The notes below the pieces were generated by a model, which saw only the letters and a program-made list of their open reading frames with translations, was not told the DNA's origin and searched no databases. 64,000 nucleotides of DNA from Dehalococcoidia bacterium (GTDB lineage: Bacteria; Chloroflexota; Dehalococcoidia; UBA6926), in the NCBI GenBank assembly GCA_965214725.1, contig OZ243973.1, positions 1,468,079 to 1,532,078 on the forward strand, read 5' to 3'. Position numbers and translations under genes: made by a program. This document shows positions 9,001-46,116 of the stretch, one piece after another. The first letter of the stretch is position 1, and every line of letters starts with the position of its first letter.

Positions 9001-12000
9001 GCGTCACCATCACGGATGACGATCCCACGCCGACGGTGTCAATCGCGAACGCCACCGCCGTGAAGGAGGGCAACGATTCCAGCGCCGCCACGAACATGAC
9101 CTTCAACGTCACGCTCTCGGCGGCCAGCGGGCGGGAAATCAGCGTCGACTACACGCTCGGCGGCACCGCCACGGCGGGCAGCGACTACAAGGAGCCCGCG
9201 CCGAAGACGGTCACCATCGCGGCCGGCGCCACGTCGAGCAGCATCGTCATCCCCGTGATCGGCGACGTGGTGGACGAGCCGAACGAGACGGTCACTGTCA
9301 CGCTGTCGAATCCCAGCAACACCACGCTCGGCTCGCCATTGACTGCCACCGGAACGATCACGGACGATGACGAGGCGCCGACCACCGGTACCATTGAGAT
9401 TGAGTTGGAGCACCAGGTGGACCCCGAGGCGGATCTGGTGGTCGCTGAGAACGTGGAAACCGCGCCGACCTTCACCTTCGTGATGGAGCTCGATGGAACG
9501 ACGTTCAGCGCCGACAAGACGGTCACCGTGAAGGTGAGCAAGAGCGATGACCCCGCCATTTCGGGCACCGACTACACTGCCATCGAGGACTTCACCATCA
9601 CGCTCAAGGCCGGCAAGAGCAGCGCGAGCGGGACGTTCACGCTCGACCCGATCGACGACACGCTGGACGAGATTGACGAGACGCTGACGGTGTATGCGGA
9701 GATTGACGGTGTGGAGATGGCGTCGTCCACTGTGACCATCACCGACGACGATGAACCACCGACGGTGTCCGTGTCAGACGCGACGGCCGTGGCGGAGGGC
9801 GACGACCCGAACGCCACGACGGACATGATATTTAAGGTAGCCCTCTCGACGGAGAGCGGGCGAGATATCACCGTCGGCTACACGCTTGGCGGCACGGCTA
9901 CGGCGGACGCGGACTACACCGATCCGGTAACCAAGACCATCACCATCGCGGCGGGCGCGGACTCTGGCAACATCGTCATCCCGGTGTTGGGTGACCTGGT
10001 AGATGAGCCGAACGAGACCGTCACGGTCACGCTAACCTCCGCCACCAACGCCACGCTTTCCAAGACGGCAAGCGCGACCGAGGCCACCGGCACCATCACG
10101 GACGACGATGATACGCCGACGGCGGCGACGCTGACGGTGGACCCGGTGAGCGTGGGCGAGGGCGCCGGCGCGACGAAGGTCACCGTGACCGTCACGCTCG
10201 ATGACACGACGCATACCGTGCCGGACACATCAAAAGACCCGCCAGCGACGAAGGATGTCGACAAGGCCACCACGTTCAACGAGGACACAACTGTCACGGT
10301 GACGGTAGGCAAGGATGGCGACACGGCCGAGTCTGACGAAGACTATGACGGGGTCAGTGATGTCAGCATCACCATAGCGGCGGGAGAGTCGAGCGGCGAG
10401 GGAGAATTCACCCTCACGCCAACGAACGACACACTCGACGAGCCCAATGAATCGATCACCATCCACGCGACGGCAACAGGCCTCGCGATATCTGATGCAA
10501 GCGTCACCATCACGGATGACGATGCCCCGCCGACGGTTACCATCGCCAACGCATCAGTCGCGGAAGGTGACAAGGCAGAGTTCACGGTCACACTGTCGGC
10601 GGCCTCTGGCCGGGATGTGACAGTTGAGTGGACAACGGGCGACGATGCCACCGATGGCGCGAATCAGGCGACGGCTGATACCGATTACACGGCCCAAACC
10701 ACCGCCACAACTCTGACCATCGACGCTGGTGGCACCACAGGCGCCATCGAGGTTCAGACGACCGAGGACACCCTTGTCGAGGGTAGTGAGACCTTCACAG
10801 TGACAATCGCCGCGCCCACTAACGCCACGCTCGGCGCAACGACGACCACCACCGGCACCATCACGGACGATGACACCGCGCCAGAGACCGCATCTCTATC
10901 TGTAAGCCCCACCTCGGTGGCCGAGGGCGCTGGTGCGACTACAGTCACGGTCACGGCCACCCTCGCGGGCAGCGTCACCTTTGATGCTGACACGACGGTC
11001 AGGGTGACAGTCGGCAAGGGCGGCGACACGGCCGTCTCAGACACGGATTACACGGGAGTCTCCGCCTTCGACATCACCATCACGGCGGGCCAATTGAGCG
11101 GTCAGCAGGCGTTCTCGCTCGCACCGATTCAAGACACCCTCGATGAGCCCAACGAGTCGCTCACTGTCCATGCGATGGCGGCGGACCTGACCATCTCTGA
11201 CGCAAGCGTCACCATCACGGATGACGATGCGGCGCCGACGGTCACCATCGCCAACGCATCAGTCGCGGAAGGTGACAAGGCAGAGTTCACGGTCACGCTG
11301 TCGGCGGCCTCGGGCCGGGATGTGACGGTTGAGTGGACGACCGGCGACGATGCCACCGATGGCGCGAATCAGGCGACGGCGGATACCGATTACACGGCCC
11401 AAACCACCGCCACAACTCTGACCATCGACGCCGGTGACACGACCGGCGCCATCGAGGTGCAGACAACCGAGGACAGCATCGTTGAGGGTGCTGAGACCTT
11501 CACGGTGACAATCACCGCGCCCAGCAACGCCACGCTCGGCGCAACGACGACGGCCACGGGCACCATCACGGATGATGATGAGGCGCCCACGACGGCGAGC
11601 CTTTCGGTCAGTCCCACGTCGGTCGCCGAGGGCGCCGGTGCGACTACAGTCACGGTGACCGCCACGCTGTCCGGCTCCACGACGTTCAATACCGCCAAGA
11701 CGGTCACCGTCAAGATCGGGAAGTCGGGCGATACGGCCGAATCGGGGACGGACTACACCCAAGTCAGCGACGTCACGATCACTATTTCGGCGGGCCAGTT
11801 GAGCGGTCAGCAGACGTTCTCGCTAACGCCATTTGATGACACCCTCGACGAGCCCATTGAATCGATCACCATCCACGCGACGGCAACAGGCCTCGCGATC
11901 TCTGACGCTAGTGTCACCATCACGGATGACGATGCGGCGCCGACGGTTACCATCGCCAACGCATCAGTCGCGGAAGGTGACAAGGCAGAGTTCACCGTGA

Positions 12001-24981: not shown

Positions 24982-27453
24982 ATGAATGTGCTCTTTAAGG
25001 TTCTGAACCGTCTCGTCACCGCCCGGCCATACGCTACGCTCGCCTTTCTGTTGCTCATGACGGTTGTGCTGGTGTACGGAGTGACGCTGCGCGCGCCGCT
25101 CACAGAGGGTGTTGCAAGCACCGCCTTCCTCCCCGTTGGCCACCCGCTGGCTGAGGCGGAGGACACAATCAGTGAGAACTTCGGGGGCTCCGGAGAGACG
25201 AGTGTCTCCACCATCATCTTTCGCGGAGAGACGCTGACACCAATCTCTTTGACGGAGATGGACTCGCTCCTCACAGAAATGCTTGAGGACCCGGTTGTCC
25301 GCCCCGTTCTCGCCAAGGACATTCCCGTCATCTCCGCGCCCTACCTGGTTGGCTTTGCGACCGGGACACAGGAGTTCAGCTCACTGACGCAGGCAGAGAT
25401 TGATGCCGCCTTTGACGCGCCGCAGATTGGCGAGGGACTGGACGCAATCACGGGACAGGACACAGATAGCAGCCCAGTCACGGTCACCAATCTCACCCTC
25501 ATTGAGACGGCTGATGGCAGGACGGGAGACGCGGCGCGGCGCATCCATGAGATTGCTTTGGCGCATGAGGGGACTCTAACCGTCAGCACTGTCTCACCGA
25601 TTGTCTCAGAGGATGAATACACGGAGGCGGCACAGGAGGGCATGGCGCCTCTTATCATGCTTGCCCTGCTGCTGATAACCGGGCTGCTGCTGCTATTCAC
25701 GCGGTCCGTGGCGGACATGCTGCTCACCCTGGCCGGCCTGGTTCTGGCGATTATGTGGACACTCGGGGCTGAAGGATGGCTTGGACCGAAAGGGCTGGGG
25801 TTCATCGGCCCGCCAAATGCGCTCACAACGCTCGTCCCTGTCATCATCATCAGCTTGACGGTCGACTACGCCATCCAAACGATCTCCCATTACCGAGAGG
25901 AACGCCGGGAAGGCTTTACCGTGCGTGATGCCACGCGTATCGGGTTGGGGAAAGTCGCCGTCCCGCTGACGCTGGCCGCTGTGACAACGATTGTGAGCCT
26001 GTTTGCGGCGCGCTTTTCGCCGATTACTGTTGTTGCGGATTTCGGCATCGTCGCCGGTGTTGGTGTTGCCCTTGCCCTCTTCGTGATGCTCACACTGCTT
26101 CCTGCCGGACGCGCAATCATCGATGGCCGTCGAGAGCGCCGAGGCAGCCTGTCTGAACCGCGCCCCATCTCCGGCGCGCTGCCCGGCGTCGCCCAGCTTG
26201 CTGAACTCCTTGGGCGAGAAGTCACACGACGTCCTATCCCGTACATCCTCGGCGTTCTCGCGGTAACGGCCCTGCTCGGATACGCGGCAGCCCAGCTGGA
26301 ATCACGCTTTGATTTCCGAGATTCTCTCCCGCAGAACGGCACAGCGGTCCGCAACCTGGAAACGCTTGATTCAGCCGTCGGCGGATCGACCGAGGTCGCG
26401 AGCATCATCATTGTGGCGGAGGCAACAGAAACGCGCACCCTCCTGAACGTACATGAATTGACAGAGACGTTCGCGGACCCGGTGGCGCGGCCGGACACCA
26501 TCGCCAGCCCCGTTCAGAACTCCTATGAGGTTCTGTTGCATGATTGGGCAGTCGACAGCGGTCTGCCGGGCGACAATTATGATGCCGAGATTGAGGCTAT
26601 CTATGAGGAAGCGCAGCGAGGGTTGCAGCTTGATCCAATCTTGATGCAGCGGATTCTGGATCGACTCGATGAGCTCGATCCCGCAATGGCACGCGTTCTT
26701 GTGAACAATCCTGACGGCATCGATACGATGCTGCTCCAGTTCCAGGCCTACAACGATGATTCGTCTCGTTCACAGCGCCTCCAGGGAGACATCGAAGCCA
26801 ACTGGTATGGGGAGGATGATCAGGTGACGGTCACGTCCCTGGGTGTCATCGCCTCAGCAGTGTCAGATGAGATAACCGCCGGCCAGACCCAGTCGCTCGG
26901 CACGACGGTGGCGGCGGCCTTGATTGTGCTTTCACTCTTCTTCTGGGCAACACTGCGGCAACCGGTGCTCGCCTTCATCGCCGTCATCCCAATTGTGCTT
27001 GTTCTCATCGCCGTCTTCGGCACGATGTCACTCATCGGGATACCGTACACGATGATTACGTCCATCATTTCCGCGCTCTCAATCGGTATCGGCGTGGATT
27101 ACACCATTCACATTATCCACCGCTACCGTGATGAGTACGCGGGCCTTCGTAATCCTGAACAGGCGGCAATCAAGACACTGTCAACCACGGGTTCTGCCCT
27201 GCTTGGCTCCGCGCTGACAACCGCCCTCGGCTTTGGCGTCCTGATCTTTTCACCGCTTCTTGGATCACAACACTTTGGCATCACCGCCACCATCACCATC
27301 GTCTATTCGCTGATTGCCGCAGTCCTCTTGGTGCTCCCGGCGATGGTCGTGTGGGGCGCCTATCAGAACGTGCGCCTCCGCTCAGCAGCGCTCATCTGGG
27401 CGCAGGAATTGGATCTGGAGATCGACGCAACGCTTCGCCGATCTCAACAGTGA
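24982..27453 (+). CDS. MMPL/RND-superfamily membrane transporter (putative lipid exporter).
   Basis: 823 aa. Two hydrophobic 6-TM bundles (around LLLITGLLLLFTRSVADMLLTLAGLVLAIMWTLG and IAVIPIVLVLIAVFGTMSLIGIPYTMITSIISALSIGIGVDYTIH) are separated by large soluble domains. This is the typical MMPL/RND architecture. Confidence 0.7.
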   Translation: MNVLFKVLNRLVTARPYATLAFLLLMTVVLVYGVTLRAPLTEGVASTAFLPVGHPLAEAEDTISENFGGSGETSVSTIIFRGETLTPISLTEMDSLLTEMLEDPVVRPVLAKDIPVISAPYLVGFATGTQEFSSLTQAEIDAAFDAPQIGEGLDAITGQDTDSSPVTVTNLTLIETADGRTGDAARRIHEIALAHEGTLTVSTVSPIVSEDEYTEAAQEGMAPLIMLALLLITGLLLLFTRSVADMLLTLAGLVLAIMWTLGAEGWLGPKGLGFIGPPNALTTLVPVIIISLTVDYAIQTISHYREERREGFTVRDATRIGLGKVAVPLTLAAVTTIVSLFAARFSPITVVADFGIVAGVGVALALFVMLTLLPAGRAIIDGRRERRGSLSEPRPISGALPGVAQLAELLGREVTRRPIPYILGVLAVTALLGYAAAQLESRFDFRDSLPQNGTAVRNLETLDSAVGGSTEVASIIIVAEATETRTLLNVHELTETFADPVARPDTIASPVQNSYEVLLHDWAVDSGLPGDNYDAEIEAIYEEAQRGLQLDPILMQRILDRLDELDPAMARVLVNNPDGIDTMLLQFQAYNDDSSRSQRLQGDIEANWYGEDDQVTVTSLGVIASAVSDEITAGQTQSLGTTVAAALIVLSLFFWATLRQPVLAFIAVIPIVLVLIAVFGTMSLIGIPYTMITSIISALSIGIGVDYTIHIIHRYRDEYAGLRNPEQAAIKTLSTTGSALLGSALTTALGFGVLIFSPLLGSQHFGITATITIVYSLIAAVLLVLPAMVVWGAYQNVRLRSAALIWAQELDLEIDATLRRSQQ

Positions 27454-27457
27454 CCAT

Positions 27458-28177
27458 ATGCGCGCCGCACTGGCCGCCGTCATGCTCTCGGCATTTATCC
27501 TGCCCCTTGTGGGCGCGTGCGGGGTTGAACCGACGCCAACGCCTGAGCCGGAATTGGCATATGAGGACATCCTGGAGGAGACGGACGCGCATCTGCTCTC
27601 GTTTCAGACTGCGCGCTTTCGCCTGATCGACGAGATGGAGTCCGGCGCCCCATTCTTTGGACAGACGCTGCAGAGCGTTGACGGACAAGTCGTGACGCCT
27701 GACCGGGCGCAGATCACAGCGAGCGTTGAGTCGATACTCGGATTCTTGGAGATTGGCATCATAACCATCGGTGACGATGCATTCATGCAGTTGACATCAG
27801 GCGCAGCCTGGAGGCCGCTGCCACCAGATCAGCTGCCGTTCAATCTCTCCAACGTTGGCCGGACGCTCAGTGACATGTTGCCCAAGATTCAGGGCGGTGA
27901 GGTCATCGGGCGGGAAATCGCCAACGACGCCGAATCCATCAAGATTGAAGGCGATATCGTCTCAGACGACCTCACGGGTCTGATACCTGCCGCAGACCCG
28001 GGCCATCCAATCGATCTCACCCTGTGGGTGAGCCCCGCAGACCGGAGCCTGCACCAGATCAGGATCGTTGGCGCCGTTTTTGACGAGGACGCGCCGGGCA
28101 CGAGCCGACTTATCATCCTCTCCGACTATGACCAGCCCGTTGAGATTGACGCGCCGCCTATAGCCACTGAACCGTGA
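27458..28177 (+). CDS. LprG/LppX-family lipoprotein.
   Basis: Starts MRAALAAVMLSAFILPLVGAC with a lipobox (VGAC). The C-terminal region (TLWVSPADRSLHQIRI...LSDYDQPVEIDAPP) resembles the M. tuberculosis LprG C-terminus (TVWIQETGDHQLAQAQL...LSKWGEKVQVTKPP). The ATG at 27458 lies 5 nt after the MMPL stop. The ORF-track start at 27314 overlaps the MMPL gene out of frame and is rejected. Confidence 0.6.
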   Translation: MRAALAAVMLSAFILPLVGACGVEPTPTPEPELAYEDILEETDAHLLSFQTARFRLIDEMESGAPFFGQTLQSVDGQVVTPDRAQITASVESILGFLEIGIITIGDDAFMQLTSGAAWRPLPPDQLPFNLSNVGRTLSDMLPKIQGGEVIGREIANDAESIKIEGDIVSDDLTGLIPAADPGHPIDLTLWVSPADRSLHQIRIVGAVFDEDAPGTSRLIILSDYDQPVEIDAPPIATEP

Positions 28178-29628
28178 ACAGCGTCCGGTCCCGCCTCGCG
28201 CCGCTTGGCTCATCCCGAGCGGCCATCCTGGCGATTGTCTGCTTAAGCGTCTTCTCGACGGCGCTTGATCAGACGGTGGTGTTGGCGGCGCTGCCGACAG
28301 TCATGCTGGACCTCAAGCTCTCACTCTCTGACCTTGATACGGCCGCCTGGATCGTCACCGGGTATCTGATTGGCTACACGGTGGTCATGCCGCTTGCGGG
28401 GCGGCTGTCAGACATCCATGGCCGCGTGAGGGTGTTCCAGGCCGCGCTGCTCATCTTTGCGATTGGCTCCGCATTCGTCGCTGTCGCACCCAATTTCGGC
28501 TGGATTGTTGCCGCCCGTGTCGTACAGGCCATCGGCGGTGGCGCAACGCTGCCGATTGGGCTGGCAATGGCCATGGCGGTGGTTGCGCCCGGGCAGCGGG
28601 GCATGGCGCTCGGACTGGTGGCCGCATCGGCGGAGGCGGGCGCCGTTCTCGGCCCGATCTACGGAGGAGCGTTGATTGAGTGGGTGGGCTGGCGGCTCAT
28701 CTTCTGGCTGGACATCCCGCAGAGCCTGCTGCTCATCGCCGTGCTGGCCATTCTCCGGAATCACGCCACGCCCGGGGCGCGTATGGACTACGCAGGCACG
28801 GCGCTGCTTGGCGCGACGCTCACCGTTGTGACAATCGGCCTATCACAACGCGCGATTTTCTCATTGGATTCCGCCTTCCCCTACATCATGCTCGCGCTGG
28901 GCGCCGTGTTGGCCATCGCATTCGTCTTCATTGAGCGACGTTCAGCGCAGCCCCTCATCGCCCCCTTTCTCTACAAATCGGGAGCCTTTGTGTCTGCCAA
29001 CATGACCCAACTGATGGCGGGGATGTCTCTCATCATTGCGCTGGTCGGCGTCCCGCTTATGGCCAATACAATCATGGAGAAAGGGGACTGGGAGAGCGCC
29101 CTGCACCTGGCACGACTGATGGTGGCCATTCCGGTGGGCGCGGCGGTGGGCGGATATATCCTGCGGTGGACGCCCGCCCGTCCCATAGTCATAACGGGAT
29201 TGGTCCTTATCGGAATCGGACTGCTGTTTATGAGCGGGTGGGAGAGAGATGTTGACGAGCTCCGGTTAACCGCGCCCCTCTTGATGGCCGGGCTCGGTTT
29301 CGGGCTCATCTTGCCGCCAATCAGCGTCACAGCCCTCAGCGCCGCGCCAAGCGACTACTGGGGCACGGCCGCGTCATTGGTCACCGCTGCGCGAATGGTC
29401 GGCATGGCCATTGGGCTTGCCGCGCTCTCCGCCTGGGGCATTGAGCGGTTCTATAACCTGACGGCGGGCATGTCGATTGGGCCGTCATTGGACGAGGCGG
29501 AGGGGGCGCTTATCGGGGCAGGGGTGAGTGTCTTTCAAGACCTGTTCATGATTGCCGGACTCATCTCGCTTCTCGCCATTCTGCCCGCCTTGTTCATGAG
29601 GATGGAGCCTGTAACCGCCGACTCTTAG
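28174..29628 (+). CDS. MFS transporter, 14-TM DHA2-like (P55-like efflux pump).
   Basis: 484 aa and hydrophobic throughout. MFS motif region around GRLSDIHGRVRVF. The GTG start overlaps the lipoprotein stop (GTGA at 28174-28177). Confidence 0.7.
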   Translation: MNSVRSRLAPLGSSRAAILAIVCLSVFSTALDQTVVLAALPTVMLDLKLSLSDLDTAAWIVTGYLIGYTVVMPLAGRLSDIHGRVRVFQAALLIFAIGSAFVAVAPNFGWIVAARVVQAIGGGATLPIGLAMAMAVVAPGQRGMALGLVAASAEAGAVLGPIYGGALIEWVGWRLIFWLDIPQSLLLIAVLAILRNHATPGARMDYAGTALLGATLTVVTIGLSQRAIFSLDSAFPYIMLALGAVLAIAFVFIERRSAQPLIAPFLYKSGAFVSANMTQLMAGMSLIIALVGVPLMANTIMEKGDWESALHLARLMVAIPVGAAVGGYILRWTPARPIVITGLVLIGIGLLFMSGWERDVDELRLTAPLLMAGLGFGLILPPISVTALSAAPSDYWGTAASLVTAARMVGMAIGLAALSAWGIERFYNLTAGMSIGPSLDEAEGALIGAGVSVFQDLFMIAGLISLLAILPALFMRMEPVTADS

Positions 29629-33597: not shown

Positions 33598-36500
33598 ATG
33601 AATGGTTTCAGCTGGAGACTCTCCGTGGTCACGCTGGCCGTCTTGGCCCTGGTGATCACGGCGTCAGCCGGGCTGTGGCTGGTTAACCCGCCACAGGACG
33701 CTGCCGCGCAAACCGCGCTGCCGGAACTCAAGATCGCCGCCGCCACTGCCACCGTGGCCGAGGGCGGCGAGCTGAGATTCACCATCTCCGCCAGCGATCC
33801 GACGCTGGACCGCGACCTCACCGTGAACCTGCAGGTCACCGAGGACACCAGTCAGGGCCGAACCTACCTCGCCGCCTCGGAGCGCGGCTCCAAACGGGCC
33901 GTCCTCTACGCCGGCATGGAGACCGGAACCTTCACGGTCAAAACCGTCGACGACAATAACGACGAGCACGACGGCGCTGTTACCGTGACGCTGCGCCCCG
34001 GGAACGGCTACACCGTGGGCGCCACCAACGCCGCCACCGGCACGGTGACCGACAAAGACGGCACCCATGTGACTCTGACTATTGGCAAAAGCATTATTCC
34101 GGAGAACGGCGGCAAGACCGACATCACGTACCGACTCCGGGGGCCGCTGAAAGCGGGTCAAACCATCGCGTTCAAGGCTGGGACCGGACGTGATTCTAAT
34201 GGAAGACAAGGCGTCGACTGGACCCTCCAGAAGAAGCCGGGCGCCGACAACACTGGCGTGACGCTATCCGCCAGCGGGACTGTCAACGGGGTTACCGCCA
34301 CCGCGCGGAACCCGATTGTGACCATGACCGGCGCCGGCGTACGGGAAGCCAAGCTCGAGCTGACCGCCGTTGACGATACTGCGACCAGCAATCGGCGAAT
34401 CACTTGGTTTGTTGGCAGTAACGGTGGCATCAGCAACATCTTTGTGCAGACCCTCGGTGGCGCCCAGGGTAGCTTCAGGGTCAGCGGGCGCAATCACATC
34501 TATCTCATAGACGACGATAACCCTCCCGCACCCGTAATCGGCTTTTCGAGAAATGCTTTCAGCGGCAACGAGAATGGGGGCCTTGTTCAGCCGGTTGTCA
34601 ACTTTTCCAGAGTCGCCACGCCGGAATTCGAGCTGCCGCTGACCTTCACTGCCGGCACTGCAACGGAAGGCGCGGACTACCATGAGCCTGGTCCGCAAAT
34701 TGTAGATCTGTCAAGCAGTTCTAGTACTGGATTGAGTTTTGACATCCACCTAATCGATGACAAGCATAAGGAGGGCGCCGAAACCCTCACGGTCGCCATC
34801 GACATGGACGCCCTGCCGGACCTCAATGGCAATAGCGAAGGCAATGGCTGGGTTGCCGGGGATCACACGACCGCAACCATCACCATCAATGATAACGACA
34901 GCGATGTTCACGCCTCGATCAGCGCCCTCGATAACATCGCAACCGAGGGCAGCTCCAGCGACAAGGCCACCTTCCGAGTCAGCCTCGACTCCGTGCGGGG
35001 CGCGGCGGGACCGTTGACCGACGGCGACAGCGCCAGGATCAACTTTGCCTTCCTCGGCGGCGCTCATGGTAAGGACTTCGATGTCAATCTGTTGACCAAC
35101 CACCCCACGCTGTCATCCGACGGCGCTTCCGTGAAATTCAACCCCAACGCCGTCAGTCCGGCGCAGGACACGCCACTATTCGCCGACTTCGAGTTGATCG
35201 CCCGGCAGGACCTGGACGCCATCGACGATCTGGTGAGGGTGCAGCTGGCCGTAATCGTGGCCGGCGCCGGCACTCCCACGGGCTCGGCGAGCGGCGAAGC
35301 CCGCATCACCCTGCGGGACGATGACCAGAAAGCGACGGGTCTGCGCATGCGCGGAGAGCTGGATGGTCCCATTGCTGACGACGACGGCGCTTTCAGGATC
35401 GGCGAGGGCAGCGGCGAAACCTTGGTGTTCGGCCTTACGCAGGCGCCAACTGCTGCCGTGAACGCGGATGCGTCCATCATCTCCGGCAGCCACGCTGCCT
35501 CCATCACGTCCGGCGCCACCAACCAGGTGGTGGTGGGCAATAGCTTCTGCTACTCGCGCTGTCCCTGGCGAGTGTGGTTCGACTACAACTACGGCGATCC
35601 GCAGAACAGTACATTGAACGGGTATCGGATTGACATCGCCGGCACGGAGGACATCGCCACCGTGCTCACCGACGACGTGACGCTGCGGATCGCCCTCCGC
35701 TCGGCCGACAAGAACTACGACGGCGCCGTGTATGAATACCCCATCAAGGTGATTGACAACGATCAGCCCATCAGCGTGGAGCTCGTGAGCACCAGCGCGG
35801 TCGACCTGCCGGAAAGCCGCAACGGCCGCATCAGGCTGGGGGTGCGGGCATCGCGTCCGGTTCACACCGGGTTGACGCCGCAGCTGACCTGGCCCGACCC
35901 GTCGGACACCGGCCACTTCACCCCGGCCCAGGACATCGACATCGCCGTGGAACCGATACCGGTGGGCGGCGACATGGCTTACATCTACCTCGACTCCAAC
36001 GACGACAACGTCGCTGAGGCGGAAGCGTCAGCAACGGCTACCATGTCCCTGGAGGAAACGGTTGCAGGCGTAACCGTGGACCAGACGCGCAACACCTTCC
36101 TGCTCCGGCACAGCGATGATGACAATCTGAACATCCGGCTGATCAAACGCTACGCCTCGGACAACACAGTCAGCTACGCGGTGTACTTCACCCGTCCGGT
36201 GGACTATGCCATTGAGCTGGTCCTGAAGGGCAAGAACAGCAACAATGACCGCATCCTGGGCATGCCCAGCACGGTGACTCAGAATAACCCCAACCTCACC
36301 AGCCCGCACGAGTACACCATCTTCGATCCGGATCGGTACACTGCCATCATCGCGCGCACCCTAGGGGACTACACGTTCTTCGACAGCCAGGCCATCGTGG
36401 TGTCCGACGGTATTCAGCTGATCGACCACGATGACCCGGTTCCGACGACAGGTCCCCCACTGATGGCGCAAAGCAGCGAGGTGTCGCCACAGGGCACGGT

Positions 36501-37479
36501 GCGTGATTCCCTGACATCAGGCATGGGCAACGGCGGCGGCAGCCTCAATGACCGGGTAAACGCGATCAGCGTGTCCAACCTAACGGCAGACGGGTTCACC
36601 CTGGGATGGTCAGCAGCCAACGGCGCTGACAGCTACCGGGTGCGCTACTGGCAGGACGAAGACGCGGTGAGCGTCTTCCCCGTCACGGGTACGACCCACA
36701 CGGTAACCGGCCTGGATCCGGAGACGGAGTACTCGGTGCAGATCATGGCGGTGGTCAACGGCAACGTGGTCACGAGCAAGTCGAGTTCAGTGTTCACCGT
36801 AACCACTGCCGCTGCTGCTGCACCGGCGCCGACGGCCACGCCCACGCCAATACCCACAGCAACACCCACGCCGGCGCCAATACCTACGGCAACACCGACA
36901 CCGGCGCCGCTCACATCGGCGCCTCCTACGGCAACACCGGCGCCGCAAGTCTGCAATCTGCCCTCGGACGCCATCACGGTGGCCGAGGTAACCGGCTGGC
37001 GGGACGCCCTCGACCCCATCAAGGCGGCCGCGGGCGTCAAACGCTGGAACCGGGTGCTGGCCACGCTGGGCGAGGACACGGGCGCTGCGCCGATGCCGGC
37101 GGAGCTGGCCCGGCAGGTCGCCAACTGGCTCGGCAACACCCGCTGGGATCGCACAGCCCGCACCCTAGAGGCTATGGCGCAGTGCGACAACCCTTTGCCC
37201 ACACCCGCGGCAGCGCCGACGCCGACGCCGCAGGCCTGCACTCTGCCGGCTGACGCCATCACGGTGGCCGAGGTAACCGGCTGGCGGGACGCCCTCGACC
37301 CCATCAAGGCGGCCCCGGGCATCAAACGCTGGAACCGGGTGCTGGCCACGCTGGGTGAGGACACTGGCCTTACGCCGATGCCGGCGGAGCTGGCCTGGGA
37401 GGTCGCCAACTGGCTCGGGAATACCCGCTGGGACCGCACGGCGCGCACGCTGGAGGCTATGGCGCAGTGCGACAACTGA
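33598..37479 (+). CDS. Secreted multidomain protein. From N to C: Calx-beta-like domains, an FN3 domain, a Pro/Thr/Ala linker, and a tandemly duplicated ~80-aa Cys-bounded domain.
   Basis: Signal-peptide-like N-terminus MNGFSWRLSVVTLAVLALVITASAGLW, with the ATG at 33598. The FN3-like segment is VSNLTADGFTLGWSAANGADSYRVRYWQ...TEYSVQIMAV. The linker is ATPTPIPTATPTPAP. The duplicated domain runs from C(N/T)LP to AMAQCDN. Confidence 0.75.
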   Translation: MNGFSWRLSVVTLAVLALVITASAGLWLVNPPQDAAAQTALPELKIAAATATVAEGGELRFTISASDPTLDRDLTVNLQVTEDTSQGRTYLAASERGSKRAVLYAGMETGTFTVKTVDDNNDEHDGAVTVTLRPGNGYTVGATNAATGTVTDKDGTHVTLTIGKSIIPENGGKTDITYRLRGPLKAGQTIAFKAGTGRDSNGRQGVDWTLQKKPGADNTGVTLSASGTVNGVTATARNPIVTMTGAGVREAKLELTAVDDTATSNRRITWFVGSNGGISNIFVQTLGGAQGSFRVSGRNHIYLIDDDNPPAPVIGFSRNAFSGNENGGLVQPVVNFSRVATPEFELPLTFTAGTATEGADYHEPGPQIVDLSSSSSTGLSFDIHLIDDKHKEGAETLTVAIDMDALPDLNGNSEGNGWVAGDHTTATITINDNDSDVHASISALDNIATEGSSSDKATFRVSLDSVRGAAGPLTDGDSARINFAFLGGAHGKDFDVNLLTNHPTLSSDGASVKFNPNAVSPAQDTPLFADFELIARQDLDAIDDLVRVQLAVIVAGAGTPTGSASGEARITLRDDDQKATGLRMRGELDGPIADDDGAFRIGEGSGETLVFGLTQAPTAAVNADASIISGSHAASITSGATNQVVVGNSFCYSRCPWRVWFDYNYGDPQNSTLNGYRIDIAGTEDIATVLTDDVTLRIALRSADKNYDGAVYEYPIKVIDNDQPISVELVSTSAVDLPESRNGRIRLGVRASRPVHTGLTPQLTWPDPSDTGHFTPAQDIDIAVEPIPVGGDMAYIYLDSNDDNVAEAEASATATMSLEETVAGVTVDQTRNTFLLRHSDDDNLNIRLIKRYASDNTVSYAVYFTRPVDYAIELVLKGKNSNNDRILGMPSTVTQNNPNLTSPHEYTIFDPDRYTAIIARTLGDYTFFDSQAIVVSDGIQLIDHDDPVPTTGPPLMAQSSEVSPQGTVRDSLTSGMGNGGGSLNDRVNAISVSNLTADGFTLGWSAANGADSYRVRYWQDEDAVSVFPVTGTTHTVTGLDPETEYSVQIMAVVNGNVVTSKSSSVFTVTTAAAAAPAPTATPTPIPTATPTPAPIPTATPTPAPLTSAPPTATPAPQVCNLPSDAITVAEVTGWRDALDPIKAAAGVKRWNRVLATLGEDTGAAPMPAELARQVANWLGNTRWDRTARTLEAMAQCDNPLPTPAAAPTPTPQACTLPADAITVAEVTGWRDALDPIKAAPGIKRWNRVLATLGEDTGLTPMPAELAWEVANWLGNTRWDRTARTLEAMAQCDN
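36952..37476 (+). repeat. Tandem in-frame duplication of 285 nt (95 aa) encoding the C-terminal Cys-bounded domain. Copies are at 36952-37191 and 37237-37476.
   Basis: Copy 1 reads CNLPSDAITVAEVTGWRDALDPIKAAAGVKRWNRVLATLGEDTGAAPMPAELARQVANWLGNTRWDRTARTLEAMAQCDN. Copy 2 reads CTLPADAITVAEVTGWRDALDPIKAAPGIKRWNRVLATLGEDTGLTPMPAELAWEVANWLGNTRWDRTARTLEAMAQCDN. Confidence 0.85.
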
Positions 37480-37866
37480 CGTTGCTACCCAACAGCGGCG
37501 ACAGGGAGTAGTCCACGCCCGCGTCGACCTGCCATGCCTGATCTCGCACCGCGCCCTGCGTGAGTACGAGGGAACACTGGGAGCAGCTGGTCGCCGTTGT
37601 GGGAGGCCGAGTTCCGCAACGCCCGGGCGGGAAATCCCGTCCGAAGCCCGCTTACTCATCGTGGTGCACCACGTAAAAGAGATCGTCGAAGTTCGCACGG
37701 AGCACGTATAGCATCCGCCCGTGCAGCGAAGCCGAGGAGCGGCTCGAGGTCCTCCACGACGTAGGCGGCAATCCCCATGCCCGACGACAGCCACATACCG
37801 GGGGGAGATGTCGAAGACGTGGCGCTAAACGGCTCAGTTCTGTCTACCGTCAAGCTTGGTGGAGCT

Positions 37867-41720: not shown

Positions 41721-42191
41721 CTACCCCTCCGCGGGTGGGTTCTCGAAGTGCACCTGCCAGTTGATGCCGAACCGATCCGTGCACGCCCCAAAGTAATCGC
41801 CCCAGAACATATCCTGCTGCTCCATCGTCACCTCACCGCCCGCGGCGAGCGCCGCAAAGACGCGATCCGCCTCCGCGCGGGTCGGCGCCGCGTAGCTGAC
41901 GGAGAAATTGGAGCCGACGCTGAGCGGCGGCCCGAACCCGGGCGGCACATCACTCCCCATGAGAATGCTGTTCCCGATGGACAGTGACACGTGCATGATC
42001 CAGTCCGTCATCTCCGACGGTATCGGCGGCATATCCTCAGAGGGCGGCAGGTCCGCAAAGGTCATCGTGTTGTCGAACTCCCCGCCAAAGACAGCGCGAT
42101 ACGCCTCAAACGCCTCCCGGCACGATCCATCATCAAAATTGATGTAGATAGAGAGCGTAGGAAAGGGCTGCTGCTGGTCCTGGGTTGTCAT
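41721..42191 (-). CDS. VOC (glyoxalase/bleomycin-resistance/PhnB-like) family protein.
   Basis: 156 aa. The pattern ...SIYINFDDG...EAF.FY..VFGGE...MHV.L.IG...LMG.D..P.... matches PhnB-like VOC proteins. Confidence 0.6.
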   Translation of the reverse strand: MTTQDQQQPFPTLSIYINFDDGSCREAFEAYRAVFGGEFDNTMTFADLPPSEDMPPIPSEMTDWIMHVSLSIGNSILMGSDVPPGFGPPLSVGSNFSVSYAAPTRAEADRVFAALAAGGEVTMEQQDMFWGDYFGACTDRFGINWQVHFENPPAEG

Positions 42192-42225
42192 GGTGTTGGG
42201 GGTCTCCTTTCGGTTGTGGGCTTCA

Positions 42226-42241
42226 GGGGGGGGGGGGGGGG
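42226..42241. repeat. Homopolymeric G16 tract (C16 on the minus strand). It lies between the RapA-like gene stop and the VOC gene start.
   Basis: Direct reading: cttca-gggggggggggggggg-tgaggg. Confidence 0.95.
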
Positions 42242-42248
42242 TGAGGGA

Positions 42249-45227
42249 CTATGACCGTTGCTCTTCCTTCACTATATCCGCTGCAGCCAAGAGGACGATA
42301 TCGTTGGGGTGCCGGAACTTGGTGCACTGGTCCGCTAGCTCGGTCTCGGCCGCCACCTGGAGTAGTTGGACGGTTTCCCTACGCTCTGCAGGGTCTCCAG
42401 CCCCCATCGACGGTTGCAGTCCCCGTGCCTCGTTGCCAAGCAACGACCCGAAGAAAGTGGGGCGTGCTTCTGCTTGATCTGACCCGTCCTTGATGAATAC
42501 TGGCAAGACATCGTCTCGGTTAGGTACACCTTGATCGTTTTGCCACCGCAATCGATAAAGGCCAAGCGCGCCGTTATCAGGGCCGCGAATAGATGCGTAT
42601 TCTCCACCGAAGTCCGGGGATTGCGCACACTCAATGATGTCCGTGAAGAAACGGCTCTTGAAATCCATCAGGTGAATGCTGCCGCTGCCCTGAGCTATCT
42701 GTCTATCTGCAGTAATGCGGACGACGGTTGCACCGGCAGGGAAGTCGGAGTACTGCCCGCGCAGGAGGTCCGGTAGCCTAATGACCAGAACCCGACCGTC
42801 GTATTGACTTTCCCTAATCTCGATGCCACGGAAGTATGGGAGCATAATCTCGAGGAAGAGGTGAACATCTTCCTGCGTAAACCTGTGGCTCGCGACAAGA
42901 GAATTTGGATCGTAGCCCTCAATGCTCGAAAATAATATGTCCTGCTGATTCTTTGCCTCGTGGGCTCGCTTTAAGGCTTCCTCAGCGTCCTGTTGAGTAC
43001 GGTCCACAGACATTTCTGAGGCATCAGCCAATATCTTTGCAATGTCAAGCCGTTCCAGTATTTCGCCCAAAATTTCGGTCTTGAGAGCACTCGGGTCGCC
43101 ATATTCACCACTGACCTCTGCCAGATCTTGGGCAATCGAGTCTACTCTCTCTAGCGTTCGCGCAAGAATCTGGTTGTCGAAGCCTTGTGTACTCATCATG
43201 TTGAACACAACAACGCGCTCTGTCTGCCCGTAACGATATAGGCGGCCCGCCCTCTGGATGAGTCGGGCCGGATTCCAAGGAATGTCATAGTTCACCATGA
43301 CGTGGCACTCTCGGTGCAAGTTGATGCCCTCTCCTCCTGCCTCTGTGGAAATGAGGAAGGGACCAGATTCATTGAATTTCGCGATGTTCGCCTTCTTCTC
43401 GTTGAGAGACATGCCTCCGTGAATCTGGAGTATCTCGCGCCCTGGATACGCAATCTTCAGCTGGTCGGCAATGTATTCCTGCGTAGCCCTGTACTCCGTG
43501 AAGACAAGGAGCTTGTCACTGGCTTCCCTGACGGGTTTCACAACCTTCTCCAAGAACAACTGCATCTTAGGGTCCTTCACATTGGCATCTTCCGCCAAAG
43601 CGATTAGGCGCTCCAATTCTTGGGCTTCCCCCTGAAAGAATGGCTGCCCTGCCTTAACCTCGACTCCCACAACATCCGCGAGTGCTTCCAGGTTATCGTT
43701 TCCATCACTCCCATCGATGAAAGCATCTATATTTCCTGTCATGACATCACCCGCATCATCATCAGCTACATCATCATTGATATCGGATTGTTCACCAGTC
43801 TGCAGACGAGCAAGACGTTTCAGCAGGGCCGTCTCGACTGCGGTGATACTAGACGAGGCAAGTTTTCTGTACGTGGTCATAACGAAGCCAACTGCCCGCA
43901 ATCCACCCCCTTCTTCCGCAACCTTATAACCTTTTCTGAGATATTCCTTAAGCTGCTTGTCAAATGTGTCCAATTTGTCCGTGCTGGGGACATCCACCGC
44001 GTGGCTATCTTGGCCACGGAATATGGGCTCTCCGTTCATGTCCGTTGCGGCGCTCTTTCTGTTGCGCAGAACCATCTCTGCGACGACGGAGGGATTCGTA
44101 AAGATCTGTCCCAGTTCTCGGGCGCGGTCTGGGCGCAAAAGCGTCAACATGTTGACAAACTGCGCGTTATCGCCTTGATGCGGAGTTCCTGTAAGAAAAA
44201 TAAAGGAATCTGTGAATTTTCTCACGTGCTGGGCCAGTCGATACCTCTGGGTTGTTTCCCTCCCCGGAACCTTGCTCAGATGATGCGCCTCATCAAAGAT
44301 GATGATGTCCCACTCCCCAGCATCGGCCAATTTCGCGAGGTTCTCATCTGATTTCCCCCGGTCAATCGACACGATAACCTTGTCCTGCCCAAACCAGTGT
44401 GACGGCTGATTTATATTGAAGTCGACTCCGAAAATCCTGAAGTCTTCGTTGAACTTGTAGCTCATCTCATCCTGCCATTGACGGACAACTGCAGCAGGGC
44501 AAACGACCAAGACACGCCTCGCCTGACGTCTGCGACGCAGTGCCGCCAGAAGGAGTCCCACCTCAATTGTCTTCCCCAAGCCAACATCGTCGGCGATGAG
44601 CCAATTCGTCTGGTCGGAAGTCAGAATCCTGTGAACCAGATCGATCTGGTGTGGCAGAGGGTCAACGTCGAGCCGATCAAGGGCTCCTGTAACTTGATTC
44701 CAGGAATCTAACGCGTAAGCGAAAGCTTTTAGCCGAAACCGTTCATGGCTATCGTCCTCGAGTTCGGCACGCACATATCTTGTCTCGGGGCCACGGAGCC
44801 TAACCAGATTCTCAAAGGGTATCCAAGCACTTTCCCCGGTCTTGTGCCATTGTACGAGTACCATATCACGTGCCGCGATGTGCCGTTCCGCTTGAACAAT
44901 TCCAGTGCCCACCGTCCTCCTGATGTTCGACAATGGGCTATCCTGCACAAGATCACCAGGCCTAAAGCCGTTGCGCAACTCCGAAGATTTGTGCCGCGAA
45001 TCAGGAATTGCCAGCCCCCACCTCACTTGAACTTCTTCCCTATTCTCGTCTGTGGCGACGACCTGGCCGCGATGTATCGGCCCTCCAGCTATTCGTTCCG
45101 CATTCAAAGTCACCCAGCAATTCACAGCTGGTATCAATCGATGTGGCGATTCATTTCTGTTCATGCCATCTCTCATACTCATGAAAGTCATCATCTCCAT
45201 ACCATTCAGTAAGCGCTTTCCATTCAT
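42249..45227 (-). CDS. SNF2-family ATPase with a RapA/HepA-like architecture: two N-terminal Tudor-like subdomains followed by the Snf2 ATPase and helicase-C domains. Start is uncertain; Met codons occur at 45227 through 45164.
   Basis: Walker A ADDVGLGKT. DEAH box IIFDEAHHL. Helicase-C motifs around LVFTEYRATQ...IHGGMS...FLISTEAGGEGINL...YDIPWNPARLIQRAGRLYRYGQ. The N-terminal segments VNCWVTLNAERIAGG...VQVRW and FRPGDLV...VLVQW resemble the paired RapA N-terminal domains (GQRWIS..., FNPGDTI...). Confidence 0.7.
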   Translation of the reverse strand: MNGKRLLNGMEMMTFMSMRDGMNRNESPHRLIPAVNCWVTLNAERIAGGPIHRGQVVATDENREEVQVRWGLAIPDSRHKSSELRNGFRPGDLVQDSPLSNIRRTVGTGIVQAERHIAARDMVLVQWHKTGESAWIPFENLVRLRGPETRYVRAELEDDSHERFRLKAFAYALDSWNQVTGALDRLDVDPLPHQIDLVHRILTSDQTNWLIADDVGLGKTIEVGLLLAALRRRRQARRVLVVCPAAVVRQWQDEMSYKFNEDFRIFGVDFNINQPSHWFGQDKVIVSIDRGKSDENLAKLADAGEWDIIIFDEAHHLSKVPGRETTQRYRLAQHVRKFTDSFIFLTGTPHQGDNAQFVNMLTLLRPDRARELGQIFTNPSVVAEMVLRNRKSAATDMNGEPIFRGQDSHAVDVPSTDKLDTFDKQLKEYLRKGYKVAEEGGGLRAVGFVMTTYRKLASSSITAVETALLKRLARLQTGEQSDINDDVADDDAGDVMTGNIDAFIDGSDGNDNLEALADVVGVEVKAGQPFFQGEAQELERLIALAEDANVKDPKMQLFLEKVVKPVREASDKLLVFTEYRATQEYIADQLKIAYPGREILQIHGGMSLNEKKANIAKFNESGPFLISTEAGGEGINLHRECHVMVNYDIPWNPARLIQRAGRLYRYGQTERVVVFNMMSTQGFDNQILARTLERVDSIAQDLAEVSGEYGDPSALKTEILGEILERLDIAKILADASEMSVDRTQQDAEEALKRAHEAKNQQDILFSSIEGYDPNSLVASHRFTQEDVHLFLEIMLPYFRGIEIRESQYDGRVLVIRLPDLLRGQYSDFPAGATVVRITADRQIAQGSGSIHLMDFKSRFFTDIIECAQSPDFGGEYASIRGPDNGALGLYRLRWQNDQGVPNRDDVLPVFIKDGSDQAEARPTFFGSLLGNEARGLQPSMGAGDPAERRETVQLLQVAAETELADQCTKFRHPNDIVLLAAADIVKEEQRS

Positions 45228-46116
45228 CTTGGGTTACCCAGTTGCGCACGTGCCGCATTGCTGTTGTATTCCAGGGTTCTACCCCTTGCCATTCAGCCAT
45301 GTACAAAGCGAATTGGGCTAGTGAAAAGATCCCTCTCTCCATCAAATCTTGTGGCAACTTGTACCGCCAATCCTCAATCCAGCTTTCCTCAATGACATCT
45401 TCTGGAGCACAGTCAATTCGCAGTTTTGCGAGTTCCAAAGCCATCTCCCTGGACATTGTATGCCGCTGATGCCGCTCAATCCACCTGCCTTTGCCCCTGG
45501 GTATCCGCACTGCCCAGAGTTCCCAATTCGCGTCCCAATACGCTTGGAACCGCAAGAATGCCAGCAGTACACGCCCATCCCAGTTCTGGCTCCTTAGCCA
45601 AGGGAACCAACTGCCGAATCGAGCGGGCACTAGCCATCTGGTCCAGACGGCCACCTCTTCCCTTTCCTCCGCCGAAATATCCCGAAGACTATCCTGAAGA
45701 CTGGCAAGCCATTCATCCACCTGAAGCGTCCGCTTGATAGAAACGTCGTTTTCGGGTAAAACGAATATGGGGCGAGTTAGAGTGCCCTCATAATCGGCTC
45801 CGTCGAGATCCGGATACTCAACCCACTCTTCAAAGGGCGCCTCGATGGGCTCTTCAGCATCGAGCAATTTGTTCTCGACAAATGCAACGTAGGCATCCGG
45901 TTCAGAGGGCCCCAATTCTTCAGGCGCGCCTTCGGCCGTGATTGCTTCAGCGTCCGGTTCAGCAATATCATCTGGCAGTTCGACGGGCAGTGAATCAAGC
46001 TTGGGCTGACTAGTTTGCTCGTTCCCAAGCTTGACTTCAATCTGCTGACTGGAAGCAAAGACAAAGTCCTCATCAATCCATCCGTCAGAGTCACCAAAGG
46101 GTTGCTGCTGGATCAT
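45151..46116 (-). CDS. Hypothetical acidic, Trp-rich protein. Its 3' end overlaps the start of the RapA-like gene.
   Basis: 321 aa. D/E-rich N-terminal half. C-terminal half rich in W/R (WLVPARFGSWFPWLRSQNWDGR...WIEDWRYKLPQD...EWQGVEPWN). An AGAGGG RBS lies 9 nt upstream of the ATG at 46116. No family was recognised. Confidence 0.5.
   Translation of the reverse strand: MIQQQPFGDSDGWIDEDFVFASSQQIEVKLGNEQTSQPKLDSLPVELPDDIAEPDAEAITAEGAPEELGPSEPDAYVAFVENKLLDAEEPIEAPFEEWVEYPDLDGADYEGTLTRPIFVLPENDVSIKRTLQVDEWLASLQDSLRDISAEEREEVAVWTRWLVPARFGSWFPWLRSQNWDGRVLLAFLRFQAYWDANWELWAVRIPRGKGRWIERHQRHTMSREMALELAKLRIDCAPEDVIEESWIEDWRYKLPQDLMERGIFSLAQFALYMAEWQGVEPWNTTAMRHVRNWVTQDEWKALTEWYGDDDFHEYERWHEQK

Follow-up and report, generated by a model that had tools for sequence, protein, structure and literature searches.

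We analysed a stretch of 64,000 nucleotides (nt) from a Dehalococcoidia bacterium of the phylum Chloroflexota (GenBank assembly GCA_965214725.1, contig OZ243973.1, positions 1,468,079 to 1,532,078 of the forward strand), referred to below as the window; all coordinates without a contig or locus name are those of the window. The subject of this work is a plus-strand gene in the middle of the window, which codes for a large secreted protein that ends in two copies of a small cysteine-bounded unit. The unit is predicted to be a four-helix module, and it belongs to no curated family that we searched. It recurs in other large surface proteins, whose genes appear to have been exchanged between bacterial phyla.

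The gene and its product

An intact open reading frame (ORF) on the plus strand ends at position 37479 and, according to the ORF listing, may begin at ATG 33544 or at the methionine codon at 33598. In an alignment of N-termini, the 18 residues between these two positions show no conservation in orthologues, while a hydrophobic signal sequence and the motif DA[AS]AQ[TN]ALP[ED]LKI downstream of it are kept in orthologues from two phyla. Met 33598, the start chosen in an earlier, sequence-only reading of the locus (the original prediction), is therefore taken as the start. Counted from this position, the protein has 1,293 residues and not 1,294, as was originally stated. The signal peptide ends in A-x-A both in the window protein and in its orthologues, which supports the prediction that the protein is secreted. 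The predicted combination of Calx-beta and fibronectin type III (FN3) regions was also correct: the whole protein passes the Pfam gathering thresholds for Calx-beta (PF03160) and fn3 (PF00041), with one domain each (Table 1).

C-terminal sorting signals (LPXTG, PEP-CTERM, GlyGly-CTERM, or the C-terminal domain of type IX secretion systems) were not found: the protein ends in ...RTLEAMAQCDN, without a hydrophobic segment, its terminal module is predicted to be all-helical and soluble-like, and none of the NCBIfam sorting-signal models scored above its cut-off for the window protein. The surroundings of the gene, its 3' tail included, showed neither promoter-like sites nor an excess of terminators, and no stable RNA structure. 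The antisense ORFs present at the locus are the usual by-product of GC-rich coding DNA.

Table 1. Features of the gene for the 1,293-residue protein
Feature	Coordinates	Strand	Evidence
Coding sequence, secreted multidomain protein of 1,293 aa (stop codon included in coordinates)	33598..37479	+	ORF listing; orthologue alignment; dN/dS < 1 against orthologues
Predicted signal peptide, residues 1 to ~37, hydrophobic core followed by DAAA/QTALPELKI (slash, putative cleavage site)	33598..33708	+	Conservation of the motif in orthologues from two phyla
Calx-beta domain, residues 311-434	34528..34899	+	Pfam PF03160, E 1.3e-9, 38.6 bits (cut-off 27)
Fibronectin type III domain (fn3), residues 988-1055	36559..36762	+	Pfam PF00041, E 3e-10, 40.6 bits (cut-off 25)
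Pro/Thr/Ala-rich linker, residues 1071-1118, with a 30-nt tandem repeat at 36836-36908	36808..36951	+	Translation; repeat searches; orthologue alignment
Helical module, copy 1, 80 aa, Cys1119...Cys1196-D-N	36952..37191	+	Family HMM 103.5 bits, E 3.6e-30; AlphaFold2 pLDDT 96.5
15-aa Pro/Thr linker PLPTPAAAPTPTPQA between the module copies; orthologues have a ~105-aa Ig-like (Calx-like) domain here	37192..37236	+	Translation; alignment
Helical module, copy 2, 80 aa, Cys1214...Cys1291-D-N, stop codon directly after	37237..37476	+	Family HMM 97.7 bits, E 2.3e-28
Short 3' tail with nucleotide similarity to orthologues in other genomes; end of the shared segment	37480..37518	+	blastn; alignment

Two copies of an 80-residue unit

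A repeat search of the C-terminal part of the gene revealed a DNA repeat of 263 nt, 90% identical, with a spacing of 285 nt, and Tandem Repeats Finder reported a period of 285, 1.9 copies, and 90% matches at 36937-37476. The original prediction described a 95-aa unit present twice. Two copies are indeed present, but 95 aa is the period of the repeat, made up of a folded unit of 80 residues and the 15-aa linker. The unit was also said to start and end with Cys; its first residue is Cys, while the second Cys (Cys78) is third from the end, in a terminal C-D-N. The copies match at 220 of 240 nucleotide positions (91.7%) and at 72 of 80 residues, and the claim that they are more than 90% identical therefore holds for the DNA but not for the protein, where the value is exactly 90.0%.

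Eighteen codons differ between the copies, ten of them synonymously, and the NG86 method gives a nonsynonymous divergence (dN) of 0.052, a synonymous divergence (dS) of 0.204, and a ratio of the two (omega) of 0.26. The bias toward synonymous differences and the low omega indicate that the plus frame is coding and under purifying selection, and that the second unit is not an identical copy generated during assembly. One could suppose that adjacent units arose by mis-assembly of a repeat of which only one copy is real, since direct juxtaposition of two units is seen only in the window copy of the gene. This explanation is highly improbable: the 20 differences among 240 nt follow the substitution pattern of coding sequence, the reading frame is intact through the junction, and five independent orthologues in long-contig assemblies also have two units.

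Predicted fold and disulfide

AlphaFold2 run on a single sequence (both units with the linker) gave a pLDDT of 59; this model was unusable and was replaced by one based on an alignment, A4, of 60 non-redundant family sequences. With the alignment, pLDDT rose to 96.5, pTM was 0.87, and four helices were placed at residues 10-18, 26-38, 50-60, and 63-79. A Foldseek search with this model found no neighbour in the PDB (best E 4.2) or in BFVD and returned generic bundles only. The module is thus predicted to be an up-down four-helix bundle of ~80 residues without an identifiable relative. Because the number of antiparallel helices is even, both termini should lie at the same end of the bundle, an arrangement compatible with a bond between the two Cys residues.

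The distribution of the cysteines points in the same direction. In 394 module instances, some of which may have been counted in both source sets, both cysteines are present in 280 cases and neither in 113; the C-terminal one is found alone once and the N-terminal one never. Taken with the signal peptide, such joint presence and absence is good comparative evidence for a disulfide that would tie the chain ends together outside the cell, between the first and the third-from-last residue, and it strongly backs the earlier suggestion of a disulfide-closed module.

Absence from curated families

No Pfam or NCBIfam model matched near threshold when searches were conducted with the unit, with the unit region of the whole protein, with 60 diverse family members, or with two divergent variants; none of the 60 members reached any Pfam threshold, and the divergent variants (B and C) were without matches. 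The best sub-threshold matches of the unit were Wza_C (12.8 bits, cut-off 25.8), DUF3253 (12.8 bits, cut-off 22.1), and the NCBIfam model for the XrtV accessory protein (15 bits, cut-off 35). Wza_C, which also appears below threshold in 18 of the 60 members (best E 0.013), was rejected because its match extends over no more than 11 unit residues. Cell-wall binding domains (PG_binding_1, LysM, SLH, SPOR) showed neither a Pfam match nor fold similarity to the module.

Searches of PDB sequences with phmmer or with the family profile yielded nothing convincing, and no PDB chain from families with solved structures matched the module significantly in sequence or in fold. A profile match to 9mkl_A, a B3/4 domain protein (E 0.003), was not taken as homology, since it spans 32 residues of an unrelated protein and was not recovered by fold searches. 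Residues 54-85 of this chain (QPAWAQAHIDAWNTVLKAFGAKPKRTPCSAEA) align with helix 2 and the loop that follows it; the similarity is probably due to chance and is the only sequence lead to a solved structure. A tblastn match to the unit elsewhere in the window (45405..45220, minus strand, E 0.029) was also treated as chance, the family HMM having no match there even at E 10. The earlier statement that the Cys-bounded unit can be assigned to no known family is therefore borne out, and the checks proposed at that time, by HMM and AlphaFold, returned no curated family and a confident four-helix model. We conclude that neither the curated libraries searched nor the searchable literature contain the helical module.

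The module family and its conservation

An exhaustive HMMER search of 1.84 billion representative proteins identified 229 proteins with the module at E <= 1e-3, 38 of them at E <= 1e-30, most of which are 500-5,000 aa long. Homologue searches that used the unit or alignment A4 yielded nothing longer than 140 aa, all of it fragments without names or domains, and the large carriers came to light in the exhaustive search. The module family is rare but real, and the occurrence of the unit in other proteins, which had been left for checking, is established. In the loci fetched for comparison (L001-L078), 116 module instances were found, one to three per protein. Approximately one quarter lie at the extreme C-terminus; the others are internal, with up to ~1,500 aa following the module. 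The unit is thus a widespread module, internal in most carriers, and not the C-terminal speciality of the window protein that it had seemed to be. Its usual context is Pro/Thr linkers and ~100-aa Ig-like repeats of the Calx-beta type. Pfam domains found in 23 carriers were Calx-beta (11), fn3 (4), P_proprotein (3), Peptidase_S8, a subtilase (2), LapA (2), and CBM_4_9 (1), with PPDK_N and Ig also present. Divergent versions of the module lack the Cys pair (roughly YAAET.NG.AHV.RW.RVL.AFGE), and a further version, C..NWKRVLIAFG..W.GWKP.REALEC, is tied to the main family by jackhmmer.

Residues R31, R34, V35, L36, G40, M48, R64, W65, and L72 are each kept in at least 90% of 301 distinct instances. 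The best-kept stretches are R31 W32 N33 R34 V35 L36 (RWNRVL, helix 2), G40, M48, R64 W65 at the start of helix 4, and L72, and the near-invariant arginines of the module are R31, R34, and R64. When the window protein was compared with paralogous carriers, the module was 74-87% identical, versus 37-44% for the Ig-like repeats in the same protein pairs; omega was lower for the module (0.21-0.43) than for the gene body (0.44-0.50). These comparisons strongly support the view that the module is under stronger constraint than its scaffold.

The same values bear on the possibility that the module is a passive structural element, which would bind no ligand and would serve as a rigid spacer or folding nucleus among the Ig-like repeats. 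The generic fold, a unit net charge that is about neutral, and the variable placement between repeats and linkers would all agree with such a role. A spacer would not be expected to exceed its neighbouring repeats so clearly in identity or to have near-invariant polar residues, and the module is kept even as a terminal domain, where spacing is needless; we therefore find this explanation very doubtful. That the module folds independently, is extracellular, is usually closed by a disulfide, and has been reused in many surface proteins is, in contrast, either demonstrated or strongly supported.

Distribution among bacteria

Genome and metagenome scans were conducted with exact peptide patterns of the close subfamily. 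Two patterns, applied to one genome per species (185,579 species), gave 81 matches in 24 genomes of four phyla, and four Dehalococcoidia metagenome-assembled genomes (MAGs) contain 9-11 module loci each. The carrier genomes are from Chloroflexota (Dehalococcoidia and Tepidiformaceae), from many Acidimicrobiia (Ca. Poriferisodalis, Ca. Poriferisocius, Ca. Spongiisociaceae, and Aldehydirespiratoraceae), from one member of Vicinamibacterales (Acidobacteriota), and from one of Alphaproteobacteria; these lineages agree with NCBI taxonomy. Between Actinomycetota and Chloroflexota, identity of the unit reaches 95%. No relatives were found in IMG/VR viral contigs, and none was confirmed in 241 million JGI metagenome records, where three weak matches (L079-L081) are without an HMM-detectable module. 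Almost all occurrences of the module are in a small group of genomes, several of which have sponge-symbiont names, and the Chloroflexota and Acidimicrobiia carriers are probably sponge symbionts. The genus names reportedly originate in a 2023 paper by Nguyen et al. on sponge-derived Acidimicrobiia MAGs.

Position and distribution together bear on a role as a non-covalent cell-envelope anchor, which would bind the wall or S-layer of the producing cell in the manner of SLH, LysM, or peptidoglycan-binding domains. In the subfamily of the window protein the module stands at the extreme C-terminus after a Pro/Thr linker, as is typical of wall-binding domains of monoderm bacteria, and most carriers belong to Chloroflexota or Actinomycetota. 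Most instances, however, are internal, with tails that can be as long as ~1,500 aa; phyla whose envelopes differ, Acidobacteriota and Alphaproteobacteria among them, have near-identical modules; the Vicinamibacterales carrier has a hydrophobic, basic C-terminal tail of its own; and 0 of 60 members match a wall-binding Pfam family. An anchoring function is thus quite unlikely.

Exchange of whole genes between phyla

Once the terminal units are left out, ~1,065 aa of the window protein align at 80% identity with proteins of two Actinomycetota, Ca. Poriferisodalis (L015) and Aldehydirespiratoraceae (L018), and the Dehalococcoidia proteins L006 and L017 are equally similar to it (80%). At the nucleotide level, identity of the whole gene to these four is 84-86% over ~3.2 kb. 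The similarity begins within ~40 nt of the start codon and ends ~40 nt past the stop codon (at 37517-37518 in blastn comparisons with L015, L006, and L013), and the flanks are unrelated. The dS between the window gene and its orthologues is ~0.25, a value that is irreconcilable with vertical descent between phyla. As to the window itself, its GatB protein places it in Chloroflexota: the named relatives of this protein, at only 60-67% identity, are from Chloroflexi or Dehalococcoidia. A binning or cross-assembly artefact is unlikely, because the orthologues lie on contigs of 1.7-3.6 Mb from Acidimicrobiia and Dehalococcoidia and are mutually divergent. These comparisons indicate a recent transfer of the whole gene between Chloroflexota and Acidimicrobiia.

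At least 13 further non-overlapping pairs of Actinomycetota and Chloroflexota carriers are 61-88% identical over 440-1,070 aa with the modules masked. Judged by these pairs, cross-phylum exchange of carrier genes is not a single event. Neither mobile-element genes nor viral links of the carriers were seen among their neighbours or in IMG/VR.

Rearrangement and decay at the C-terminus

The C-terminal part of the five orthologues consists of the FN3 domain, a short linker, unit A, a Pro/Thr linker, the ~105-aa Ig-like domain, unit B, and the stop codon. The units of the window protein had been described as a simple tandem duplication; since all five orthologues already have two units with a domain between them, this description does not apply. 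In the window copy the Ig-like domain is missing, the units are 15 aa apart, and the first linker is 36 aa longer than in the orthologues, with the 30-nt repeat inside it. Both window units are closer to the last unit of the orthologues (~85% nt identity) than to the first (~78%), and the string PMPAELA..VANWLGNTRWDRTARTLEAMAQCDN is common to both; the first unit therefore appears to have been converted towards the second. We conclude from the alignments that the window copy lost the Ig-like domain, that its first linker expanded, and that its units were homogenised by gene conversion. By the same reasoning, L018 provides another example of conversion between units of one gene, as its two units (residues 1097-1176 and 1302-1381) are identical over 38 residues (RILASLGVDTGETPMTVAQAQAVSNWLGNTRWDRTSRTL).

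A check on copy number across relatives had been suggested, and the number and integrity of units do vary among homologues. Related truncated or broken copies with a single unit exist. Shortened paralogues of the window gene in L002 and L033 lack residues ~155-800, and each contains an in-frame TAA (at 9932-9934 and 5803-5805, respectively) at a different Tyr codon of the FN3 motif SYRVRYWQDE, while the carriers in L001 and L003 are split by frameshifts. Pseudogenisation seems to be frequent in the carrier family.

Neighbouring genes

A giant ORF upstream of the gene (141-24776, plus strand) codes for at least 8,211 aa. Its Calx-beta repeats number 34 or more, it also has matches of the ALGX, LapA, and Ig types, and it contains a single Cys. 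Only 140 nt separate this ORF from the edge of the window, and its real start may be located further upstream, outside the window. The window protein had been proposed as a possible partner of this giant. The family HMM detects no helical module in the 8,211-aa ORF, only generic Calx-repeat similarity (~30%) connects the two proteins, and six unrelated genes in mixed orientation, coding for an MMPL transporter, an LppX/LprAFG-like lipoprotein, an MFS transporter, an SDR protein, an unassigned ORF, and a xanthine/uracil permease, lie between them. We found nothing in favour of a specific partnership, apart from the fact that both proteins belong to one broad type of surface protein.

More generally, the modules could serve for self-association or docking, the bundles pairing mutually or with a cognate partner domain and so joining the large Calx-beta proteins to one another in a coat or matrix, which might extend from cell to cell. 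Such a function is unlikely, given that the module is absent not only from the giant but also from 46 of 139 clustered neighbours, and that no recurrent cognate partner family is found beside carriers. Nor is there, among the neighbours, an accessory gene consistently linked to module carriers; apparent recurrent neighbour families were discarded as Arg/Pro-rich out-of-frame ORFs of GC-rich DNA.

Several observations on the surroundings of carrier genes are recorded here. At L006 (6703-8235), L013 (6597-7739), and L005 (6699-9131), a gene starts with a divergent Cys-bounded variant of the module (..GYGRSWRQVLLFLG..W.GWKQFRDEVARLLAC). It lies directly downstream of the Dehalococcoidia orthologues in L006 and L013 and of an unrelated module gene in L005; unlike in L006 and L013, no such gene is present downstream of the window copy. 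Tandem clusters of several large Calx-like genes, module genes among them, occupy 15-30 kb in L012, L020, and L023 (OZ220695.1 2389125-2416390), and further clusters are found in OZ219765.1 at 1.06-1.14 Mb and in CBDCDO010000002.1 at 226-328 kb. Directly downstream of the module gene of L001 (10657-16990) are ORFs of 56 and 59 aa, a C39-peptidase ABC transporter, and a second ABC transporter, an arrangement that resembles bacteriocin export. A GPP34-cytochrome P450 fusion, a squalene-hopene cyclase, and a squalene epoxidase (920-6254) also adjoin the module-bearing gene of L001; for sponge symbionts, the GPP34 plus P450 architecture and steroid-biosynthesis clusters spread by horizontal transfer have been reported (PMC11706023, PMC9531527).

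In the window, AT skew is 0.21-0.30 over positions 1-22000 (strong excess of A over T). The MMPL transporter, LppX/LprAFG-like lipoprotein, and MFS transporter genes stand in a row at 24982-29628; such rows, of a lipid-export type, are known chiefly from Actinobacteria, yet this one is in a Chloroflexota genome. At 42000-46000, GC content is 0.53 versus ~0.61, and the segment contains a SNF2/ResIII helicase-like ORF of 992 aa (42249-45227, minus strand) and an unassigned ORF of 321 aa (45151-46116, minus strand). This low-GC island looks like acquired DNA and is possibly a defence island.

Proposed function of the module

We propose, with moderate confidence, that the module is a ligand-binding adhesion or recognition knob on large secreted surface proteins. 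The chain would enter and leave the bundle at one end, so that the module would stand out like a knob from the row of Ig-like (Calx-beta-like and FN3) domains and would confer a capacity for adhesion or recognition on whichever large secreted protein bears it. The near-invariant arginines beside conserved tryptophans are candidate ligand contacts, because a purely hydrophobic core would not require them, and they would suit an anionic ligand, for example an acidic protein or a glycan with sulfate or carboxyl groups. As near-identical modules occur across differing envelopes in what is apparently one habitat, a ligand supplied by the habitat and common to all carriers, for example a host or matrix glycan or protein, is more plausible than the cell's own wall. 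The window gene would then be one of a pool of surface-protein genes that moved recently between Chloroflexota and Acidimicrobiia.

A number of points weigh against this proposal. A generic bundle fold by itself suggests no function. The conserved arginines could equally form internal salt bridges, and the proximity of the cysteines, the exposure of Arg and Trp, and an 'apex patch' are deduced from topology and helix periodicity. Part of the high conservation could be due to recent spread and not to constraint. The pattern-based scans would miss divergent members outside the habitat, and a sponge origin is directly indicated only by taxon names (Poriferisodalis, Poriferisocius, Spongiisociaceae) and by the literature on these lineages.

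A more specific version of the ligand-binding proposal is that the module acts as a 'resident's badge' of sponge symbionts: it would bind a sponge host factor, for example glycans of the aggregation factor or the mesohyl, or a host receptor, would allow retention in the mesohyl or escape from phagocytosis, and would be acquired by unrelated phyla with whole Calx-beta genes by horizontal transfer inside the host. We regard this version as a speculative one that is probably not correct in full. If true, it would make the module a convergently recruited, habitat-specific symbiosis determinant.

How sponges tell resident symbionts from food bacteria, and how dozens of unrelated phyla converge on one host, are open questions, and the answers offered are mostly counts of 'eukaryotic-like' Pfam domains. 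What is new here is an uncatalogued, habitat-restricted, and conserved module, together with clear recent flow of its carrier genes between phyla. The module is a candidate interaction domain that is small enough for expression and for screening against host material, and a marker for a gene pool shared among symbionts. The family merits a curated model, so that genome surveys stop missing it. Should the module be a mere spacer, the movement of 4-kb adhesin genes from one phylum to another would remain instructive as an example of gene flow driven by habitat.

Comparison with known systems

The window protein, secreted and multi-domain, fits the class of 'eukaryotic-like' Calx-beta/fn3 proteins of sponge symbionts. 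The Calx-beta and fn3 classes are reported to be enriched in sponge-associated Actinobacteriota (PMC11706023) and across phyla in Ircinia microbiomes (PMC9531527). Where selected terms were looked up in these papers, which count Pfam domains, the helical module and whole-gene exchange between phyla are not mentioned. Sponge aggregation factors consist of a signal peptide, a number of Calx-beta domains, and a C-terminal Wreath domain that is lineage-restricted and absent from Pfam; the Wreath domain is encoded by three exons, the last two averaging 523 and 336 bp, and exceeds ~290 aa (PMC5400394). The parallel is one of architecture only: the Wreath domain is more than three-fold larger than the 80-aa module, and kinship between the two was set aside on this ground.

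As to fold, generic up-down four-helix bundles (ROP, de novo designed bundles, and copper storage proteins) are among the nearest comparisons. The GA module, protein A domains, and FIVAR are three-helix bundles of ~45-70 aa without a terminal disulfide, which bind host ligands in giant adhesins of Gram-positive bacteria. Like them, the window module is short, all-helical, and present in one or several copies in very large surface proteins; unlike them, it is predicted to have four helices and a terminal disulfide. None of the 60 family members scores above the Pfam thresholds of these three families, which are also absent among the 25 most-matched of 32 sub-threshold families. The CBM2 domain of actinobacterial glycoside hydrolases is a terminal ~100-aa beta-sandwich with Pro/Thr linkers, a disulfide between near-terminal Cys residues, and conserved Trp. 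The window module is likewise terminal, Pro/Thr-linked, probably closed by a disulfide between Cys residues near its ends, and equipped with conserved Trp, but it is predicted to be all-alpha and has no Pfam match to a carbohydrate-binding module (CBM). While the searches place it in none of these families, by analogy the module would be functionally most like the helical binding modules of Gram-positive bacteria or the Pro/Thr-linked, disulfide-containing CBMs.

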